Shown in pieces: positions 15,097 through 39,039 of a stretch of 64,000 bases of DNA. This DNA comes from an uncultured Candidatus Rokubacteria bacterium (GTDB taxonomy: Bacteria > Methylomirabilota > Methylomirabilia > Rokubacteriales > DASRDR01). The notes under the pieces were generated by a model. That model was not told the DNA's origin. It did not search any database and saw only the letters and a list, made by a program, of their open reading frames with translations. Position numbers and translations under genes: made by a program. How positions within the stretch are numbered: the stretch's first letter is position 1; each line of letters starts with the position of its first letter. The stretch lies in the NCBI GenBank assembly GCA_963805625.1, contig CAWDVE010000013.1, positions 416,001 to 480,000 on the forward strand. The letters are read 5' to 3'.

Positions 15097-16299
15097 TCAG
15101 CCGACCAGGAGCGCGCGAATGCGAGCGGCGATGACCCGCTCGTCCCCGGGCCGGAGCCCGTTTGGATCCACCAGCAGGATGCCGCGGGACGTCTCGCGCT
15201 CGCTGAGGTGGACGGGCGGCTCTCCCTGCTGGAGCGCCCGGCTGAGCGCCACAGCGCTTCGCCCCATGGTCGCCTCGTCGAACACCAGCTCGAGGAGCGG
15301 GGCCCGGCCGGTCTCTCGGGCGGGGCGCACCCGCGCTCGGACGTGCGGGACGCCGACCAGGTCGTCGGCCAGCGCTGCCAGCCGGGATTCGCTCTCCGCC
15401 AGCTCGGCGTCCACGTCCAGGGTGGCGAAGCGCTCGAGGGCCACCAGGAGCCCGACGATCTCCTCCTTGCCCGCCTTGAACCCGCGCCCGAGGCCATGGT
15501 GCGGGATGCCGCGCAGAGCCGCCCGCGGGATCAGACTCTCCGGGGGATCCCAGGTCTCGGGGGCGACGTCCATGTCGAGCTGCTGGAGCGCCGCCGCCGC
15601 GATCAGTGGCTGGCGCCCGGACAGGATGCCGGTGCTCTGCGGCCCCCGGATGGCCTTGCCGCCGCTGAAGGCGACGAGCGCGGCCCCCTCGCTGATGAAG
15701 CGGCGGAGGTTGCTGACCGGCGGGAGCTGGGCAGCGGCATCGACGATCACGGGCAGACCGTGTCGCGCGGCCAGCGCGGTGACCAGGCGCAGCGGCGGGT
15801 CGTCCGCCGGCGTGGCCGTGTACGCGATCGCCACCACCTCGGGCGTGATCGCGGCCTCCAGCTCCCACTCCTCCACGCCCCGCACCCCCGCCCCCATCCC
15901 GCGGTCGTTGAAGCCGACCTCGCGGATCCGCGCACCGGCCGCCCGGATCGCGTGGTCGTACCCCGTGCGGTGGGTCCGGCACATCAGCACCTGGTTCGGC
16001 ATGCCGTCCGTGTCCGGCAGGCGGTCCATGCGGGCGGCGTCGAGTCCGGTCAGACAGGCGGCCGTGGCGAGCGTGAGGGCCGCCGCCGCGCCGGTGGTGA
16101 CGAGCCCCGCCTCGGCGCCGGTATGCGCGGCGATCACCGCGCTCGCGGCCGCCTGGAGCTCCGCGATGTCCACGAAGCTCCCGGCCGCCTCGCGCATCGC
16201 GTCCAGCACCTCGGAGGGGATCAGGCTGCCCCCGAGCCGCGTGACCAGACCGGCGCCGTTGATGCGCGTCCGGATGCCGAGCTGCCGGTAGACGTCCAT
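15097..16299 (-). CDS. SelA-like / DgaE-family PLP-dependent enzyme
   Basis: INGAGLVTRLGGS, VIVDAAAQ, FSGGKAIRGPQSTG, GRGFKAGKEE. Confidence 0.85.
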   Translation of the reverse strand: MDVYRQLGIRTRINGAGLVTRLGGSLIPSEVLDAMREAAGSFVDIAELQAAASAVIAAHTGAEAGLVTTGAAAALTLATAACLTGLDAARMDRLPDTDGMPNQVLMCRTHRTGYDHAIRAAGARIREVGFNDRGMGAGVRGVEEWELEAAITPEVVAIAYTATPADDPPLRLVTALAARHGLPVIVDAAAQLPPVSNLRRFISEGAALVAFSGGKAIRGPQSTGILSGRQPLIAAAALQQLDMDVAPETWDPPESLIPRAALRGIPHHGLGRGFKAGKEEIVGLLVALERFATLDVDAELAESESRLAALADDLVGVPHVRARVRPARETGRAPLLELVFDEATMGRSAVALSRALQQGEPPVHLSERETSRGILLVDPNGLRPGDERVIAARIRALLVG

Positions 16300-20935: not shown

Positions 20936-21121
20936 ATGAAGCCCTTCACCCGGATTGCGGTGGTCGTGCTTTGGCTGATTGCCTTGCTGCAATTGCTGCG
21001 GTTCATCTTGCGCTGGGAGGTCACCTGGAATGGCGCGCCCGTGCCGCTCTGGCTGAGCGGGCTCGTGGCGGCCCTCGCCGTCGGCTTGGCGGTCATGGTC
21101 TGGCGGGAACGGCGGCGGTAA
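20936..21121 (+). CDS. Small two-TM membrane protein
   Basis: MKPFTRIAVVVLWLIALLQLLRF...PLWLSGLVAALAVGLAVMVWRE. Confidence 0.7.
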   Translation: MKPFTRIAVVVLWLIALLQLLRFILRWEVTWNGAPVPLWLSGLVAALAVGLAVMVWRERRR

Positions 21122-26986: not shown

Positions 26987-27088
26987 CAGAAGGTACCCGC
27001 ACCGTGTGTGGAGGCGGTCGGCTCACCGGTTCATCCCTGGTCTGGCCCGGGACCCCGAGCCGACCGCAACGGCGGCCTCGCCAGTGGG

Positions 27089-27940
27089 CTAGGCCTCCTC
27101 GAAGCGCGGCGGCCGCTTCGCGAAGAAGGCCTCGAGCCCCTCGGCGAAGTCGCGCCCGTCGGCGATGCGGGCGAGGTGCTCGAGCTCCCGGTCGAGATGG
27201 TAGTCGAGCCGATCCACTCCCGCCGCCTGGTTGAGCAGCGCCTTAGCGACGCCGTAGGCTCGGGTCGGGCCCTCGGCGAGCCTCCGGGCCAGCGCACCCA
27301 CTTCGTCCTCGAAGGCCTCGGCCGGGTGGACGGCAGTGATCAGGCCCATCTCCAGCGCAGCCCGCGCGTCGAGGCGCGGGTTGAGGAGGACCAGCTCCAT
27401 CGATCGCCGGAGCCCGATGAGCCGGGGCAGAAAGAAGGTGGAACTCTCAGCGCCGGTGAGACTGGTTTTCGGGTAGGCCCACTCGAACGTGGCGCGGGCG
27501 CTGGCCAGCACGAGATCGCAAGCCATCGCGATTCCGAAGCCGCCCGCCGCCGCCATGCCGTCCACGGCGGCGATGAACGGTTTCGGGGCCCGCTTGATCT
27601 CGGAGATCGTGCTGTGGATGTACTCGAGGATCTGCTTGAAGATCTCGCCGTACCCGCCCGGGACCTCCCGGGCGTCCGGCGAGAGGTAGCCGAGCTCGGC
27701 CCGCTCGCCGCCCGCCCGGATGTACTTGAGATCGGCCCCGCTGCAGAAGACCCCGCCCGCGCCCCGGATCACCACGGCGCGGATCTCGTCGTCGCGGGCG
27801 TACCGGAGGCCCGCTCTACGGAAGTCCTGGGCGGTCTCCACGTCGAGCGAGTTGAAGCGCTCTCGCCGGTCGATGGTGATGACACCCACCGCGCCGTCGC
27901 GCTCCATCCGGATGTGCTTCATGCTCGGCTCTACGGCCAT
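27089..27940 (-). CDS. Enoyl-CoA hydratase/isomerase (crotonase) family protein
   Basis: FCSGADL, AAVDGMAAAGG...ACDLVLA, FFAKRPP. Confidence 0.9.
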   Translation of the reverse strand: MAVEPSMKHIRMERDGAVGVITIDRRERFNSLDVETAQDFRRAGLRYARDDEIRAVVIRGAGGVFCSGADLKYIRAGGERAELGYLSPDAREVPGGYGEIFKQILEYIHSTISEIKRAPKPFIAAVDGMAAAGGFGIAMACDLVLASARATFEWAYPKTSLTGAESSTFFLPRLIGLRRSMELVLLNPRLDARAALEMGLITAVHPAEAFEDEVGALARRLAEGPTRAYGVAKALLNQAAGVDRLDYHLDRELEHLARIADGRDFAEGLEAFFAKRPPRFEEA

Positions 27941-27950
27941 GACCGTCTCC

Positions 27951-28991
27951 TCAGCAGATCCGAGGCAGCGGCTCCCCCTCCGGCTCGGAGAGCAGCCGCC
28001 GCCCGAAACCCGTGTCCAGGATCACCGCGCCTGCGTGCTCGGCGATGCATGTCCCGATGACGGCCGCGTTCTCCCCGAGCGGGTGGGCGCGGAGCGCCGC
28101 CAGCACCCGCTCCGCCGCCTCCGGCCGGACGCCCAGCACCGCCTTGCCTTCGTTGGCGATGTGGAGCGGGTCGATGCCCAGCAAGTCGGCGGCCGCTCCG
28201 ACCACCGGCGACACGGGCACGGACCGTTCGTCCAGCACGATGCCGACGCCGCTCTTGTCGGCCATCTCGTGGAGCGCGCTCGACAGCCCTCCGCGGGTCG
28301 GGTCCTTCATCGCCGTCACTGCGCCTCCGCCGGCAGCGAGCGCGCGGGCGACGAGATCGTTGAGCGGGGCCACGTCGGAGCGGAGGTCGGCCTCGAGTTC
28401 GAGCCCCTTGCGCAGCGCCATGATGGCGAAGCCATGGTCCCCCATGGTGCCGGTGACGAGGATGCGGTCACCGGACCGGAGACCCGAGTCGGGCACCACG
28501 CGGTCGGTGAGGCCGATGCCCGTCGTGTTGAGCACGATGCCGTCGAGCTCCCCTCGGCCCATGACCTTGGTGTCGCCCGTGACGATCACGGCGCCTGCTT
28601 CACGGCAGGTGCTGTGGATGGACGCCTGGATGCGCTCGAGATCCGAGCGGGCGAAACCCTCCTCCAGGATCACGGCGCAAGTGAGGGCCAGCACCTGGGT
28701 GGCGCCCATCATGGCCAGGTCGTTCACCGTCCCCGCGATGGCCAGCCGGCCGATGTCGCCGCCCGGGAAAAAGACCGGGTGGACCACGTGGGAGTCGGTG
28801 GTGATGACGAGCCAGCGGTCGCCGACCCGGAGCGCGGCTCCATCGTCCATCGCGGCCAGGCCGATCCCGTCCACGGGCGTCTCGGCGAAGCCATTCACGA
28901 AGAGGCCCTCGATGAGCGCCCGCATGGCCCGGCCGCCGGCCCCGTGCTTGAGGCTGATGCGCCGGTCGAGAAGGGGCGGCCGCGCTCTCAC
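27951..28991 (-). CDS. hypE: Hydrogenase maturation carbamoyl dehydratase HypE
   Basis: HGAGG, TTDSHVV, GTVNDLAM, TGDTKV, MKDPTRGG, ANEGK, C-terminal PRIC; GTG at 28991 overlaps the hypD stop. Confidence 0.95.
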   Translation of the reverse strand: MRARPPLLDRRISLKHGAGGRAMRALIEGLFVNGFAETPVDGIGLAAMDDGAALRVGDRWLVITTDSHVVHPVFFPGGDIGRLAIAGTVNDLAMMGATQVLALTCAVILEEGFARSDLERIQASIHSTCREAGAVIVTGDTKVMGRGELDGIVLNTTGIGLTDRVVPDSGLRSGDRILVTGTMGDHGFAIMALRKGLELEADLRSDVAPLNDLVARALAAGGGAVTAMKDPTRGGLSSALHEMADKSGVGIVLDERSVPVSPVVGAAADLLGIDPLHIANEGKAVLGVRPEAAERVLAALRAHPLGENAAVIGTCIAEHAGAVILDTGFGRRLLSEPEGEPLPRIC

Positions 28992-29292
28992 GGCGCTCCT
29001 CCGAGATCGGGGTGGCCGCCGTACTGGTGCCAGATCCTGCAGGTGCCTTCGCTCGAGACCATGCAGGCCCCCACCGGCGTCTCCGGCAGGCACTCCTTGC
29101 CGTACAGCGCGCAGTCTGTGGGCGAGGCGATCCCTGCCATGATGTCGCCGCAGACGCAGTCCTGGACGAGCGCAGACGGCGCGTAGTCCCAGAGGCCGGT
29201 CACGTCGATGCGGAAGCGCCGCCTCGCGTCCATGTGGGCCCACTCGTCGCGGAGGCGGAGGTTGCCGTTCGGCACGTGGGCGATGCCGCGCG
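28988..29292 (-). pseudogene. hypD: HypD C-terminal fragment
   Basis: RGIAHVPNG...CVCGDIMAG...DCALYGKECLPETPVGACMVSSEGTC; the N-terminal ~270 aa are absent. Confidence 0.9.
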
Positions 29293-30326
29293 CCGTCCCA
29301 GGGGTGCCTGGCCTTGCCGTCGCCGTCGCTGTACTCGTACCAGGAGCGGGTGACCCACTCCGTGATCTGCTTGTGGTCCATCGGGTGGACCGTCGAGAGA
29401 TCGCGATTCAGGATCACGCCCCGCGGCAGCCAGAGCCGCGCCGCGTCGCCGCTCGTGTCGATGGGGTAGTCGCCGTAGGCGAGATAGTTGCCGACGCCGG
29501 CACCGAGCCCGGCCCAGTCCTTGTAGAACGGGGCGATGGCCAGGACGTCGGGGACGTAGACCTGGTCCACAAATTCCTTGGCGGTCACCAGGAGCTGATG
29601 CTGGAGCGCCAGCTTGTCGGCGTTGAGCGCGGCGGCGCTGTTGGGGTCCAGCGGGATGGCCATCCCGCCGACCAGGTAGGTCTGCGGGTGCGGGTTCTTG
29701 GACCCGAGGATCGCGTGGATCTTGATCACCTCGCGCTGCCAGTCCAGGGCCTCGAGATAGTGCGCCACCGCCATGAGGTTGGCCGCCGGCGGCAGCTTGT
29801 AGGCGGGGTGGCCCCAGTAGCCGTTGGCGAAGAGGCCGAGCTGCCCAGACTCCACGAACTTCTTCAGGCGATCCTGGACGGTCTTGAAGTAGGTTGTGCT
29901 CGACTTGGGCCAGGGCGAGAGGGACTGGGCGAGCTTGGAGGTCTCACCGGGGTCGGCCTTGAGCGCGCCCGTGATGTCCACCCAGTCCAGGGCGTGCAGG
30001 TGATAGAAGTGGATCACGTGGTCCTGGACGTACTGGATCCCCGCGATCAGGTTGCGGATGATCCGGGCATTATCCGGGATCTTGATACCGAGAGCGTCTT
30101 CCACTGCGCGCACGGCGCAGGCGGCGTGAACCGTCGTTCAGACGCCTCAGATGCGCTGGGCGAAGAGCCAGGCGTCGCGCGGGTCCCGCCCCTTGAGCAC
30201 CAGCTCCATGCCACGGAACATCGTGCTCGAGCTCCAGGCCTCCGCGACCTTGCCACCCTCCACCTGCGCCTCGATCCGGAGGTGCCCCTCGATCCTGGTG
30301 ATGGGGTCGATCGCGATCTTCGGCAT
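29293..30326 (-). CDS. Group 1 [NiFe]-hydrogenase large subunit with two in-frame TGA at the L1 CxxC (putative Sec60/Sec63); 3'-truncated
   Basis: MPKIAIDPITRIEGHLR...RDPRDAWLFAQRI*GV*TTVH...HFYHLHALDWVD...KNPHPQ...WYEY...HPWDG; TGA at 30147-30149 and 30138-30140; no other stop in ~345 codons; C-terminal DPCxxC missing. Confidence 0.9.
30101..30124 (-). promoter_or_regulatory. SECIS-like hairpin downstream of the hydrogenase TGA codons
   Basis: mRNA CCG-C-CUGCGC[CGUGC]GCGCAG-UGG; loop starts 23 nt after the second UGA and 32 nt after the first. Folded by eye. Confidence 0.6.
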
Positions 30327-31461
30327 CACGTGGCCTCCTCTTTCGATTGCTGTCCCTGTTCCTTCGGCCGGGTCTTGGCGCGGATGGTACTGACGACGCC
30401 GTGGGCGGCAAAAGCCGCTGCGGTGCCGCCCACGATCCAGCCGCCAATGCGGTCCACCGTGGTCTGCACGCCGGCACCGGGCAGTGGCGGCAGGCGCCGG
30501 TAGAACGGCGTCATGGTGTCCCAGAAATCCCGCTCGGAGCAGCCGACGCAGCCGTGCCCGGCCCCCACCGGCCAGCTCGTCCCGTCGTTCCAGCGGACCA
30601 CGGGGCAGTTGTGATAGGTCTCGGGCCCCTTGCAGCCCATCTTGTACAGGCACCAGCCTTTGCGGTGGCCCTCGTCGCCCCACTCCTCCACGAACTGGCC
30701 GGCATCGAAGTGGGCGCGCCGCTCGCACTGATCGTGGATGCGCTCGCCGTAGGCGAACAGTGGCCGGCCCTGCTGATCGGTCGCCGGCAGCGCGCCGAAC
30801 GTGAGGAAGTGGACGATGGTCGCGGTGATGTTGACGGCATTGGGCGGGCAGCCGGGCAGGTTGATCAGGGTGAGGCCCGGCACCGCGTCCTGGACGCCGA
30901 CGGCCCCGGTGGGATTGGGTTTGGCCGACGGCCAGCCCCCGTAGAAGGCGCAGGCGCCCACCGTGATGGTCGCGGCGGCGCTGCCGCACACCTCCTTGGC
31001 GATGTCGAGCGCCGTCCGGCCGCCGATTGTGCAGTAGATCCCGCCGTCCCCGGTGGGGATCGAGCCCTCGACCACCACCAGATACTTCCCCTTCTCGCTC
31101 CTCACCGTGTCCATCAGTGACTTCTCCGCCGCCTTCCCCGACGGCGCCATGATGGTCTCGTGGTAGTTGACCGAGAGGATGTCCAACGCGATGTCGCCCA
31201 CCGAGGGGCGGCTCGCGCGGAGGAAGGACTCGGTGCACCCGGCGCAATCCTGGAACTCGAGCCACACCAGCGCCGGACGACGGACCTGCTCGAGCGCCGC
31301 GGCGACCCGCGGCAGGTAGCGGTCAGGCAGCGCCAGGACGGCCGTCATGGCGGCGCAGAACTTGACGAAGCTCCGCCGCGGGACCCCCCGCTCCGCCCAG
31401 CGCGTGGGCGGCCGCCCTCCCCAGCCCCGGGGCGTCGCGGTCTTCGGAACGATGGAGCCGT

Positions 31462-31477
<16 letters not shown>
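30326..31477 (-). CDS. [NiFe]-hydrogenase small subunit (Tat signal, C-terminal TM)
   Basis: RRSFVKFC Tat motif, EFQDCAGCTES, GACAFYGG, PGCPP, HDQCERR, WCLYKMGCKGP, WPVGAGHGCVGC. Confidence 0.95.
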
Positions 31478-32143
<666 letters not shown>

Positions 32144-32154
<11 letters not shown>

Positions 32155-32512
32155 AGGGCACCTCCTCGCTCGTCTCGAGGCTGATGACCTCCAGCTCACG
32201 CCCCGAGATCAGCTCGACGAGCCCGGAGCCGCAGCGGGGACAGCTGAAGGACAGCACTTCGATCTCGAAGCCCGCGGCGCAGTCGGCGCAGGTGGCCCGG
32301 ACAGGGATGTGTTCTATCACGAGGACCGCCCCGTCGAGCGCGGTCCCCGGAGTCAGCAGGTCGAAGTAATGGCGGAGGCAATCCGGGACGACGGAGGTGA
32401 GCCGCCCGATCCTGACCGTGACACACGATACGGGAGGGCGCGGCCCCGCGAGGCGGGCCAGGGCGTTCGTCGCCACCTCGATGATCCCCTCGCAGACCGA
32501 CAATTCGTGCAT
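32144..32512 (-). CDS. hypA: Hydrogenase nickel metallochaperone HypA
   Basis: MHELS, CADC...CPRCG, GRE. Confidence 0.95.
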
Positions 32513-32537
32513 GCCCGGTCTCCCGTCCGCATCAGCC

Positions 32538-32957
32538 TCACGTCGGTCCGCGCGCGGCGACCTGGGCGAGAGTGGTCTCGTCCATCATCGCCTGGAGCGT
32601 CGCGCTGACCCGGGCCCACTCGCTCTGCAGTCGGCAGGGATGGGGGTCGCCCGCACGGCGGGGCGGGAAGATGCACCGCCGGAGGACCACGGGCCCCTCG
32701 ATGGCCTCGAAGATCTCCCTCAGCCGGATCTCCTGGGCCGGTCGCGCCAGCGCATAGCCGCGAACGGCGCCGCGGTGGGACGAGACCAGGCGGTGACGCC
32801 GGAGCTTCTGGAGCGTGCGGGCCAGAAAGCCGGCGGGCAACTGGCCCGCCTGAGCGATCTGGCGAAGAAGCATGACCGTGCCCCGGGGCTGTCTGGCCAA
32901 CACGATCAACCCCTCCAGGCCATACTGACTCTCGCGACTGAGAATCACCGGAGTCAA
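32538..32957 (-). CDS. Rrf2-family transcriptional regulator
   Basis: YGLEGLIVLA...FLARTLQKL...SHRGAVRGYALARPAQEIRL...IEGP. Confidence 0.85.
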   Translation of the reverse strand: MTPVILSRESQYGLEGLIVLARQPRGTVMLLRQIAQAGQLPAGFLARTLQKLRRHRLVSSHRGAVRGYALARPAQEIRLREIFEAIEGPVVLRRCIFPPRRAGDPHPCRLQSEWARVSATLQAMMDETTLAQVAARGPT

Positions 32958-33169
32958 AAGACCTCACGGGTCGCTTGAGGAAAGAGTGGATCGGCCCGCG
33001 CGTAGGGTCCATGAGCCAAGAGCCTCATTCTTCTGAGGCATGGGCCTCACCTCGGGTCCAGGACAGGCCTGTAGGTCGTGGGCCGCCACGACCGGAGCTT
33101 GACCGCGATCGTGAGGTGGATCAGCAGCGACCCGGGAACCTCGCGAGATCCCTGGCGCCTGGTGCACGG

Positions 33170-35639: not shown

Positions 35640-36281
35640 TTACTGACAGATTTGCTGGCTGTAGGCGGGAATCCACACCGTGGCGCGCTGCCCGTTCTGG
35701 ACCGTCCGGGTCTCGTAGTGGCCCTGGACGGTCACGGTCTCACAGTTCTGACCGCCGGTCGGGGCCGACCCCTGGGCAGGCGGCTGCGGCGGCCCCGCCG
35801 GCGGGCTGCCGTAGCTCAGGCTGGTTGACGGATTCACCTGGCCTCCTGTCCCGGGGTCAGGCGGCGGGGTGTAGGCGGGGGGTGAGTATGCCGGGTACGA
35901 GTATGCGGGATAGCTGTAGGCCGGGTATGGGTAGGTAGGGTACGCGTAGGGATACGCAGGGTACGCGTAGGCCGGGGGATACCAGTAGGGGGCCGTAGCG
36001 AGGGTACCGATCCCCAACCCGAGGGCGAAGCCCCCCCAGCCCCAGCCCCAACCACCCCCGTGCCCACCATGCCAGCCCCCACCTCCACCATGCCAAGCAC
36101 CACCGCCGCCACCACGAAATCCACCGTGCCCCCCACCCCGCTGAGCCTGAGCAGGGCCCGCGAGGAGCGGCACGAGAAGCAGGGCCGCGAGCGCGATCGC
36201 CGTCAATTTCCTCACGTTCTTAGCCTCCTCTACAGTTGTTTTGACGGCAATATCGCGCCTTCGATTCCTAGGTTCCGTCAA
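35640..36281 (-). CDS. Secreted Gly/His- and Pro/Tyr-rich low-complexity protein
   Basis: Signal peptide, GGxHGG repeats, PAY repeats, C-terminal CETVTVQGHY...IC. Confidence 0.75.
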   Translation of the reverse strand: MTEPRNRRRDIAVKTTVEEAKNVRKLTAIALAALLLVPLLAGPAQAQRGGGHGGFRGGGGGAWHGGGGGWHGGHGGGWGWGWGGFALGLGIGTLATAPYWYPPAYAYPAYPYAYPTYPYPAYSYPAYSYPAYSPPAYTPPPDPGTGGQVNPSTSLSYGSPPAGPPQPPAQGSAPTGGQNCETVTVQGHYETRTVQNGQRATVWIPAYSQQICQ

Positions 36282-38793: not shown

Positions 38794-39039
38794 GTGAGCG
38801 AAAGGTCCGTAACGGTATATAGTTCGCCCACCTGACGCCCCTGCAAGCAGACGAAAGAGTTTCTTTCGTCCAAGGGCGTGACGTATCGGGAAGTGAACGT
38901 GGCGGAGGACTTGGAGGGCCGGGATGAGCTGATCCGGCGTACCGGTCAGCTGGCCGTGCCAGTGACGGTGATCGACGACGAGGTGGTGCTGGGCTTCAAC
39001 CGGCCCCGGCTCGTCGAGCTGCTCGGCCTGGACGCCTAA
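38794..39039 (+). CDS. Glutaredoxin/NrdH-like selenoprotein (UxxC)
   Basis: VSERSVTVYSSPT*RPCKQTKEFLSSKGVTYREVNV...TGQLAVPVTVIDDEVVLGFN; in-frame TGA at 38833-38835 occupies the first Cys of CxxC. Confidence 0.88.
38836..38878 (+). promoter_or_regulatory. Bacterial SECIS-like hairpin of the glutaredoxin gene
   Basis: Lower stem CGCCC/GGGCG; upper 9-bp stem GACGAAAGA[GUU]UCUUUCGUC; loop starts 23 nt after UGA. Confidence 0.75.

Follow-up and report, generated by a model that had tools for sequence, protein, structure and literature searches.

The closest described counterparts of the locus discussed here are found among the Group 4 [NiFe] hydrogenases. Takano et al. (2026) have reported 16 UXXU enzymes of this group and proposed a single shared SECIS for them (PMC13582414). 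In its available text, the study leaves out Groups 1-3, citing only two Group 1 sequences with an N-terminal CXXU motif, and the question of how a bacterial in-frame SECIS serves two UGAs three codons apart is raised without a test. Reviews including PMC13188914 list, as far as their accessible text goes, UxxU motifs for other bacterial selenoprotein families and hydrogenase alpha subunits only as UxxC. The bacterial SECIS consensus, in the Zhang and Gladyshev model, comprises a loop of 3-9 nt on a stem of 4-16 bp at a spacing of 16-37 nt, with a U following a G that occupies loop position 1 or 2, and an energy of -7.5 kcal/mol or lower (PMC13188914). With regard to decoding, SelB carrying Sec-tRNA is described as being bound to the SECIS already when the ribosome reaches it, the lower part of the element then being unwound (PMC4513850, PMC7026636).

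The locus lies in a window of 64,000 nucleotides (the whole stretch of DNA that was analysed) from an uncultured Candidatus Rokubacteria bacterium, referred to below as the source genome (G000). On the minus strand, positions 29291..30326 cover codons 1-345 of a gene for a [NiFe]-hydrogenase large subunit (PF00374, E 5.9e-132 with 2 TGA), whose ORF starts at 30326 (-) and whose N-terminal nickel motif reads RI-U-GV-U. The gene for a small subunit of 383 aa (30326..31477, minus strand; TIGR00391, 436 bits, above the cut-off) lies directly upstream, its stop sharing 1 base (30326) with the large-subunit start. The ORFs that precede it (window 31475-33023 (-)) are presumably hypA-, hypB- and Rrf2-type-regulator-like, judging from motifs in their translations. 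The top NCBIfam and PDB matches of the large subunit are group 1 enzymes, and its nearest named relative, at 92% identity, comes from a Ca. Methylomirabilia genome (L013). The protein is 71-72% identical to the Roseiflexus enzymes, which are assigned to group 1f (PMC6776052), and this identity suggests a group 1f-like enzyme. By its sequence the protein is a group 1 [NiFe] hydrogenase: the subunit families and the operon fit this assignment, with the cytochrome b and the protease visible in the related genome G019 only. It does not fall into Group 4, having group 1 matches and a group 1 operon and no Group 4 antiporter-type complex.

In the assembly, the large-subunit gene is cut at about 29291 and lacks its C-terminal third, including the DPCxxC motif. 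Comparison with G019 places a junction at 29288..29294, where a gap of about 5.3 kb is flanked by identities of 98.1% and 99.0% on its two sides (blastn), with a 4-nt match at 29291. The gap removes the large-subunit C-terminus, cytochrome b, the maturation protease, hypF, hypC and most of hypD, and the missing 5.3-kb part was not detected at any other place in the source genome. The cut frame stays open across the hypD remnant, which it reads in an alternative frame, and on into hypE, resulting in a 791-codon chimeric ORF that ends at 27951. As assembled, this truncated copy could not give rise to a complete large subunit, and the gap represents either a deletion or a misassembly. Close contigs from runs X1, X2 and X6 end at 29291 from both sides and continue into other sequence, which indicates that the relatives are intact. 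In the RNA run X15, no close contig is listed across the motif. The hydrogenase locus (window 27079-31985) has 98-99% DNA identity to a locus from a genome of another genus (L251, G019:C15), and a close match to the large-subunit protein is present in 0/14 genomes of the same genus, suggesting a recent transfer or misbinning. With the large subunit as query, a close orthologue appears in 1/60 relatives (G019). Gene callers using table 11 end such genes at codon 60.

The two UGAs, at codon 60 (UGA1, 30147..30149, minus strand) and codon 63 (UGA2, 30138..30140, minus strand), align to the two conserved Cys of the N-terminal RxCGxC motif, that is, the first and second N-terminal nickel-ligand positions. 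Judging by motif position, they would be equivalent to C76 (terminal ligand) and C79 (bridging) of E. coli Hyd-1, respectively. Contigs of runs X6, X7 and X3, with 3-6 differences from the window, have none listed at either UGA, although a missing row is not proof. Orthologues were collected as the best 80 GTDB loci, found by patterns outside the motif (19 UxxU, 5 CxxU and 56 CxxC), and from a metagenome scan in which TGA was required as the second motif codon and which covered 120 of an estimated 470 loci. After removal of those that lacked the motif or had less than 90 nt of downstream sequence, 198 regions including the window were left, of which 185 are distinct: 67 UxxU, 62 CxxU and 56 CxxC. 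The first codon is TGA in the 67 distinct UxxU regions, which span several phyla, and the second in 129/129 Sec-type regions. An additional sample, counted by hand, covered 121 genomes from the Nitrospirota class that includes G072 with an unbiased pattern and shares at least 3 genomes with the first orthologue set; its 88 matches comprise 60 UxxU, 12 CxxU, 16 CxxC and 0 UxxC. The UxxC arrangement is also absent from 301 genomes of one phylum. In a Chloroflexota sample, 1/151 matched, and the match was the centre genome itself. On the tree, the three states UxxU, CxxU and CxxC need 17 changes. The C-terminal motif is CxxC in every locus whose frame reached it (39 UxxU, 29 CxxU and 56 CxxC, the long loci L153 and L171 without this motif being outside the count), and no third Sec was found there among the 68 Sec-type loci reaching the motif. 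Two apparent exceptions proved to be frame breaks, with DPCMAC in another frame. The two Group 1 CXXU sequences mentioned above are said to stem from Baltazar 2011.

A predicted bacterial SECIS, here termed hairpin 1 (30101..30124, minus strand), emerges from folding and from the orthologues. It has 9 bp, a bulged C and the loop CGUGC (30114-30110 (-)), in which the conserved G is at 30113 (loop position 2) and the U at 30112. Counted from UGA2 and UGA1, the distance to the start of the loop is 23 and 32 nt, respectively, as a reading made from the sequence alone had proposed; both spacings lie within 16-37 nt, and with an energy of -12.4 to -13.5 kcal/mol the hairpin agrees with the consensus on every point. 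Folded alone, its stability is unremarkable (-12.4 kcal/mol, z -0.92, 35/200 shuffles equally stable), and the case for hairpin 1 comes from the orthologues. At the gathering score, Rfam gives 0 matches in the 64-kb window. Comparable hairpins accompany the single-Sec genes of the same genome. A glutaredoxin-like gene in the window (38833..38870, plus strand; Pfam), with a U-x-x-C motif and a lower GC3, has its UGA at 38833 (+) and a SECIS-like hairpin whose loop GUU begins 23 nt further on, a spacing that the sequence-only reading had already noted. In a second glutaredoxin-like gene (G000:C10:725132), also with a UxxC motif, the loop of the SECIS-like hairpin lies 22 nt after the UGA, and in selD the hairpin loop lies 20 nt after it.

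Across the distinct regions, the core of hairpin 1, defined as the loop G plus the three closing pairs, is found in 65/67 UxxU, 55/62 CxxU and 7/56 CxxC. The hairpin is accordingly not equally common in Cys orthologues (120/129 Sec-type versus 7/56 Cys-type); equal frequencies would have spoken against the earlier reading. The loop G is present in 129/129 Sec-type and 35/56 Cys-type regions, while a constrained energy of -7.5 kcal/mol or lower is reached by 60/67 UxxU, 45/62 CxxU and 5/56 CxxC. When compared with 40 synonymous shuffles, hairpin 1 beats 95% of them in 43/67 UxxU, 46/62 CxxU and 7/56 CxxC regions. RNAalifold on the 67 UxxU regions recovers the hairpin-1 core alone; the long lower stem predicted for the window is not recovered on the orthologues. 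On well-supported branches there are only 4 independent Sec/Cys pairs, with a mean of 2.8 changing the same way and 0 the opposite way (p 0.25). In 30 further loci of the Nitrospirota class, the core is present in 18/19 UxxU, 3/7 CxxU and 3/4 CxxC, so that the separation between Sec and Cys forms is not clean everywhere. Four CxxU loci with an RF-C-GV-U motif (L295, L298, L300 and L314) are without the core hairpin in the usual register, and may use a different SECIS.

The covariation analysis used 25 Sec-type regions, taken from the window, G019 and 23/24 GTDB Sec loci. Double changes occur in 4/6 pairs of hairpin 1, slid controls score lower, and the score is reached by 0/500 shuffles, a control that ignores kinship. 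The compensatory changes cross codon boundaries, through TGC-GCA, AGC-GCT, GCT-AGC and GCC-GGC pairings, and also shift amino acids; in the window, the replacement of Ser by Ala corresponds to a double change that yields a G-C pair. Since the changed pairs span codon boundaries, the unusual residues appear to follow the stem. This bears out the earlier proposal that RNA structure constrains the segment and its residues, made from the local peptide HAACAV, which is indeed present, HALASVRA being the commonest Cys form (13/56). The accompanying remark that A/T-ending codons cluster here is correct: codons 64-86 contain 7/22 of such codons of the gene and form its densest 23-codon window, but only GTT and GCA lie inside the hairpins, with GAA touching the base and the other four downstream. 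Selection on hairpin 1 as a bacterial SECIS of the standard kind thus looks real from these comparisons, SelB binding being predicted. Two further features of the segment can be mentioned. An extra Cys at codon 70 (30117-30119), seven residues past the second ligand, is part of the SECIS stem and is found as TGC in about one third of the Sec-type enzymes (22/67 UxxU and 21/62 CxxU). Moreover, the Val codon before UGA2 has C or T as its third base in 128/129 Sec-type versus 36/56 Cys-type regions.

The same hairpin, in the same register, is present in CxxU and UxxU genes. A sister gene in G019 (L094, 98% identical) is of the CxxU type, and the 60 nt from its first motif codon are otherwise identical to those of the window. 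L094 is nested among UxxU genes, with branch support of 84-95, which together with the identical segment suggests that UGA1 was lost with no change in the hairpin. As the hairpin is common to one-UGA and two-UGA genes, including this sister, one shared SECIS appears to be the best reading, in line with what the sequence-only reading had put forward as a possibility. In our judgement, hairpin 1 is probably a single SECIS that recruits SelB and Sec-tRNA for one UGA after the other; an intact gene would then yield an enzyme with two Sec nickel ligands. SelB would sit on the G-U loop ahead of the ribosome and Sec would be delivered at UGA1; the move of the ribosome by three codons would leave the upper stem unmelted, and a second SelB complex could then load on hairpin 1 for UGA2. 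The latter looks like the primary site, its 23 nt comparing with 20-23 nt in the single-Sec genes of the genome, and UGA1 would have been gained or lost as a further site on this SECIS. One point against this model is the yield: at a read-through efficiency of about 40% per UGA (PMC7026636), two UGAs would give about 16% full-length product if they were read independently.

The segment contains a second hairpin, hairpin 2 (30123..30146, minus strand), with its upper stem at 30140-30127 and the loop GACG at 30135-30132. It folds from 30146 to 30123 as had been described, overlapping the base of hairpin 1 by 2 nt, with a z of -2.87 and 2/200 shuffles equally stable. Seven of its nine pairs are fixed by the protein sequence, and the free pairs of the lower stem form in 41/67 and 44/67 UxxU versus 42/62 and 48/62 CxxU regions, respectively. 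The covariation check across orthologues, which the sequence-only reading had suggested for both hairpins and which hairpin 1 withstands, yields for hairpin 2 a double change in 1/9 pairs, in one sequence. With its loop beginning 11 nt past UGA1, hairpin 2 falls short of the 16-37 nt of the SECIS consensus, and the first loop base in the 67 UxxU regions is A in 31, G in 22, U in 9 and C in 5, without a conserved G. In spacing, loop G and covarying stem, hairpin 2 is therefore unlike a SECIS, and most of it is probably a side effect of the U-T-T-V-H codons. A role for its upper part can still be considered because the loop contains an ACG codon that is specific to UxxU genes.

This codon belongs to a wider signature of the double-UGA genes. 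ACG stands two codons after UGA2 in 65/67 UxxU versus 27/62 CxxU regions, against an ACG background of about 20%; its last base, the G at 30132, is the synonymous third base of the second Thr codon and is enriched in UxxU. The Ile codon before UGA1 is ATA in 56/67 UxxU versus 11/62 CxxU, the background being 150/802 Ile codons in UxxU genes, and the Val codon is GTT in 46/67 versus 25/62. In the Nitrospirota-class sample, counted by hand, ACG is found in 58/60 and ATA in 59/60 UxxU genes, and the G in 3/12 CxxU. On the tree, the ACG base shows on average 0.0 pairs changing the opposite way in both tests, out of 6-7 independent pairs only, and the tree-corrected median p values are not significant, at 0.125-0.25 for ACG and ATA and 1 for GTT. 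The window copy has ACG and GTT, with ATC before UGA1, as in its own clade. Several origins of the signature were considered and set aside. Turner 2004 energies do not support tetraloop stability as the cause of ACG, and pairing of an ACGG stretch with the SECIS loop is without covariation. An alternative hairpin with UGA2 in its loop is not specific to UxxU (pairs in 34/67 and 32/67 UxxU, 27/62 and 45/62 CxxU), and an out-of-frame ATG in ATA|TGA as a restart site would open frames of 16-108 codons with no constant length. The ACG and ATA preferences of double-UGA genes are left without explanation by the shared-SECIS model.

As for the decoding machinery, the source genome encodes tRNA-Sec, an intact selA and a selD with its own UGA. 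Its selB, which adjoins the intact selA near tRNA-Sec, is frameshifted in a C/G homopolymer run (G000:C21:224970-224997), probably through a sequencing or assembly error. Matches to the tRNA-Sec family (E <= 1e-8) are present in 17/19 UxxU, 5/6 CxxU and 7/19 CxxC genomes, the last being hand-picked from 56, and the UCA anticodon was confirmed for the fetched tRNA-Sec loci. Additionally, long-armed tRNA genes with a GCA anticodon and a U-CCA end, similar to tRNA-ReC, occur in 6/19 UxxU genomes and in one CxxC genome. These loci, L284-L290 (in G079, G077, G075, G073, G062, G072 and G087), fit the available description of tRNA-ReC (PMC13582414). They have a short D-loop and long, sometimes branched extra arms, and ARAGORN missed 6/7 of them. 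No tRNA-ReC was found in the source genome by nhmmer, by an anticodon-arm scan or with model R1, nor in G019 or the remaining genomes among the 33 searched, which are incomplete. Contig C7 of the source genome carries five weak matches to the tRNA-Sec family (182-263, 15558-15635, 21005-21096, 28761-28844 and 35834-35916); they have in common a segment resembling the 3' half of a tRNA, repeated on one contig, and are possibly integration-site remnants.

The signature left over by the shared SECIS has led us to consider, tentatively and as an addition rather than a replacement, that the upper part of hairpin 2 is a helper for UGA1. This 5-bp hairpin, starting 6 nt after UGA1, would fold at the mRNA entrance of the ribosome only when UGA1 is in the A site; by taking up 14 nt of spacer, it would bring the SECIS to about the position that it has for UGA2, and the ATA in the P site might add a pause. 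The enriched G of the ACG codon, 6 nt after UGA2, would sit inside the ribosome during the reading of UGA2. The helper would account for the ACG, GTT and ATA excesses in UxxU genes, for their recurrence in the case of ACG and ATA in the class sample, and for the lack of opposite changes of ACG on the tree. It is set back by the small number of independent pairs and their p values, by a predicted hairpin-2 stem pairing that does not differ significantly between UxxU and CxxU (p 0.39) with a stem mismatch in 21/67 UxxU, by the lower stability of the commonest UxxU loop, AACG, relative to alternatives (Turner 2004), and by the ATC that replaces ATA in the clade of the window. The other role envisaged for hairpin 2, a switch in which hairpins 2 and 1 are alternative folds serving UGA1 and UGA2 in succession, had been offered by the sequence-only reading, and now seems very improbable. 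The 2-nt overlap of the hairpins as drawn would fit it, as would an ACGG stretch able to pair with the SECIS loop in 46/67 UxxU. In the predicted ensemble of the window, however, both hairpins form next to each other (pair probabilities 0.94 and 0.98); the lower stem of hairpin 2 is not enriched in UxxU, its loop is too close to UGA1 for the consensus, and RNAalifold returns only the core of hairpin 1. The ACGG pairing, for its part, does not covary, and 21 UxxU regions have G at loop position 1 while ACG is still present in 65/67.

Other explanations depart from the assumption that both UGAs are read as Sec in a working gene. One of them, most likely the first, might be read as Cys by tRNA-ReC (SelC*) or by a near-cognate tRNA, resulting in a functional CxxU enzyme. 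The tRNA-ReC-like genes make Cys at one UGA possible in the 6/19 UxxU genomes that carry them, tRNA-ReC is reported in about 56% of Group 4 UXXU genomes (Takano et al., PMC13582414), and in engineered Hyd-1 the activity falls to 3% with C76U against 13% with C79U (PMC8020662). Conversely, searches of G000, G019, G061 and a set of Chloroflexota genomes gave no such tRNA; the model used, R1, was derived from the seven tRNAs already detected and could overlook more divergent ones. For the present gene we regard Cys reading as unlikely. A dead gene in which the UGAs arose by nonsense mutation or misassembly, and the hairpin by chance, is scarcely credible. The truncated copy and the frameshifted selB do point to assembly errors or a decaying locus, and the hairpin has a z of only -0.92. 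Nevertheless, the 67 distinct UxxU regions come from several phyla, DPCxxC is retained in 39/39 UxxU loci that reach the C-terminal motif, the close contigs of other runs have no difference listed at either UGA, and hairpin 1 covaries; on these comparisons, conservation already contradicts the dead-gene reading for the codons and the hairpin.

The single shared SECIS therefore stays our preferred reading. Its extension to a wide clade of group 1 uptake hydrogenases with two Sec nickel ligands, in which one SECIS would be complemented by a synonymous-codon helper for UGA1 (a fixed ACG within a small hairpin at the mRNA entrance of the ribosome, mostly with ATA before UGA1), is speculative and more doubtful than not. 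The locus belongs to a natural panel of hundreds of genes with one hairpin, CxxU/UxxU sisters reaching 98% identity and a pair of synonymous codons varying with the number of UGAs, which makes the two-UGA question directly testable in a reporter. A natural N-terminal active site with two selenium atoms would be notable, if true. The engineered E. coli Hyd-1 variants C76U and C79U, besides their low activity, are described as almost inactive at 10% O2 (PMC8020662), and natural two-Sec enzymes would have to differ from them. The importance of the finding is tempered by the hairpin being a standard SECIS, by the prior publication of the idea for Group 4 and by the truncation of the copy in this genome.

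No paper on Group 1 UxxU enzymes or on the ACG and ATA preferences was found in a literature search that subscription journals were mostly outside of; the Group 1 UxxU variant is thus not found in print, whereas UxxU with a shared SECIS is already published for Group 4 (PMC13582414). The SECIS consensus model, in its accessible text, is written for one UGA and silent on double decoding (PMC13188914). By analogy, hairpin 2 might play a role similar to that of the eukaryotic SRE, a stem-loop beside the UGA that is reported to enhance recoding without being essential (PMC5727441), although the SRE works with a SECIS in the 3' UTR. Like the classical [NiFeSe] enzymes of Desulfomicrobium baculatum (1CC1) and Desulfovibrio vulgaris (HysA), the present enzyme belongs to group 1 and would have Sec as a nickel ligand. 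Unlike HysA, its orthologues have an all-Cys C-terminal motif (68/68 Sec-type loci reaching it; the motif is absent from the window copy), and the large subunit matches Cys enzymes much more strongly (3MYR, E 1.9e-150) than 1CC1 (E 2.2e-50). The resemblance to the UXXU Group 4b [NiFeSe] enzymes, as described in the available text (PMC13582414), extends to UGA at both N-terminal ligand codons, a C-terminal CxxC, one downstream SECIS with a loop G, a hairpin common to CXXU and UXXU forms and tRNA-ReC in some hosts. That text describes no context effects of ATA or ACG. The present enzyme differs from those of Group 4b in being of the group 1 uptake type, with a cytochrome b partner in G019, and in a SECIS of unrelated sequence, whose loop G comes from a Val codon here and from a Thr ACG in Group 4b, and which lies 32/23 nt from the two UGAs, compared with 25/16 nt in one Group 4b example.
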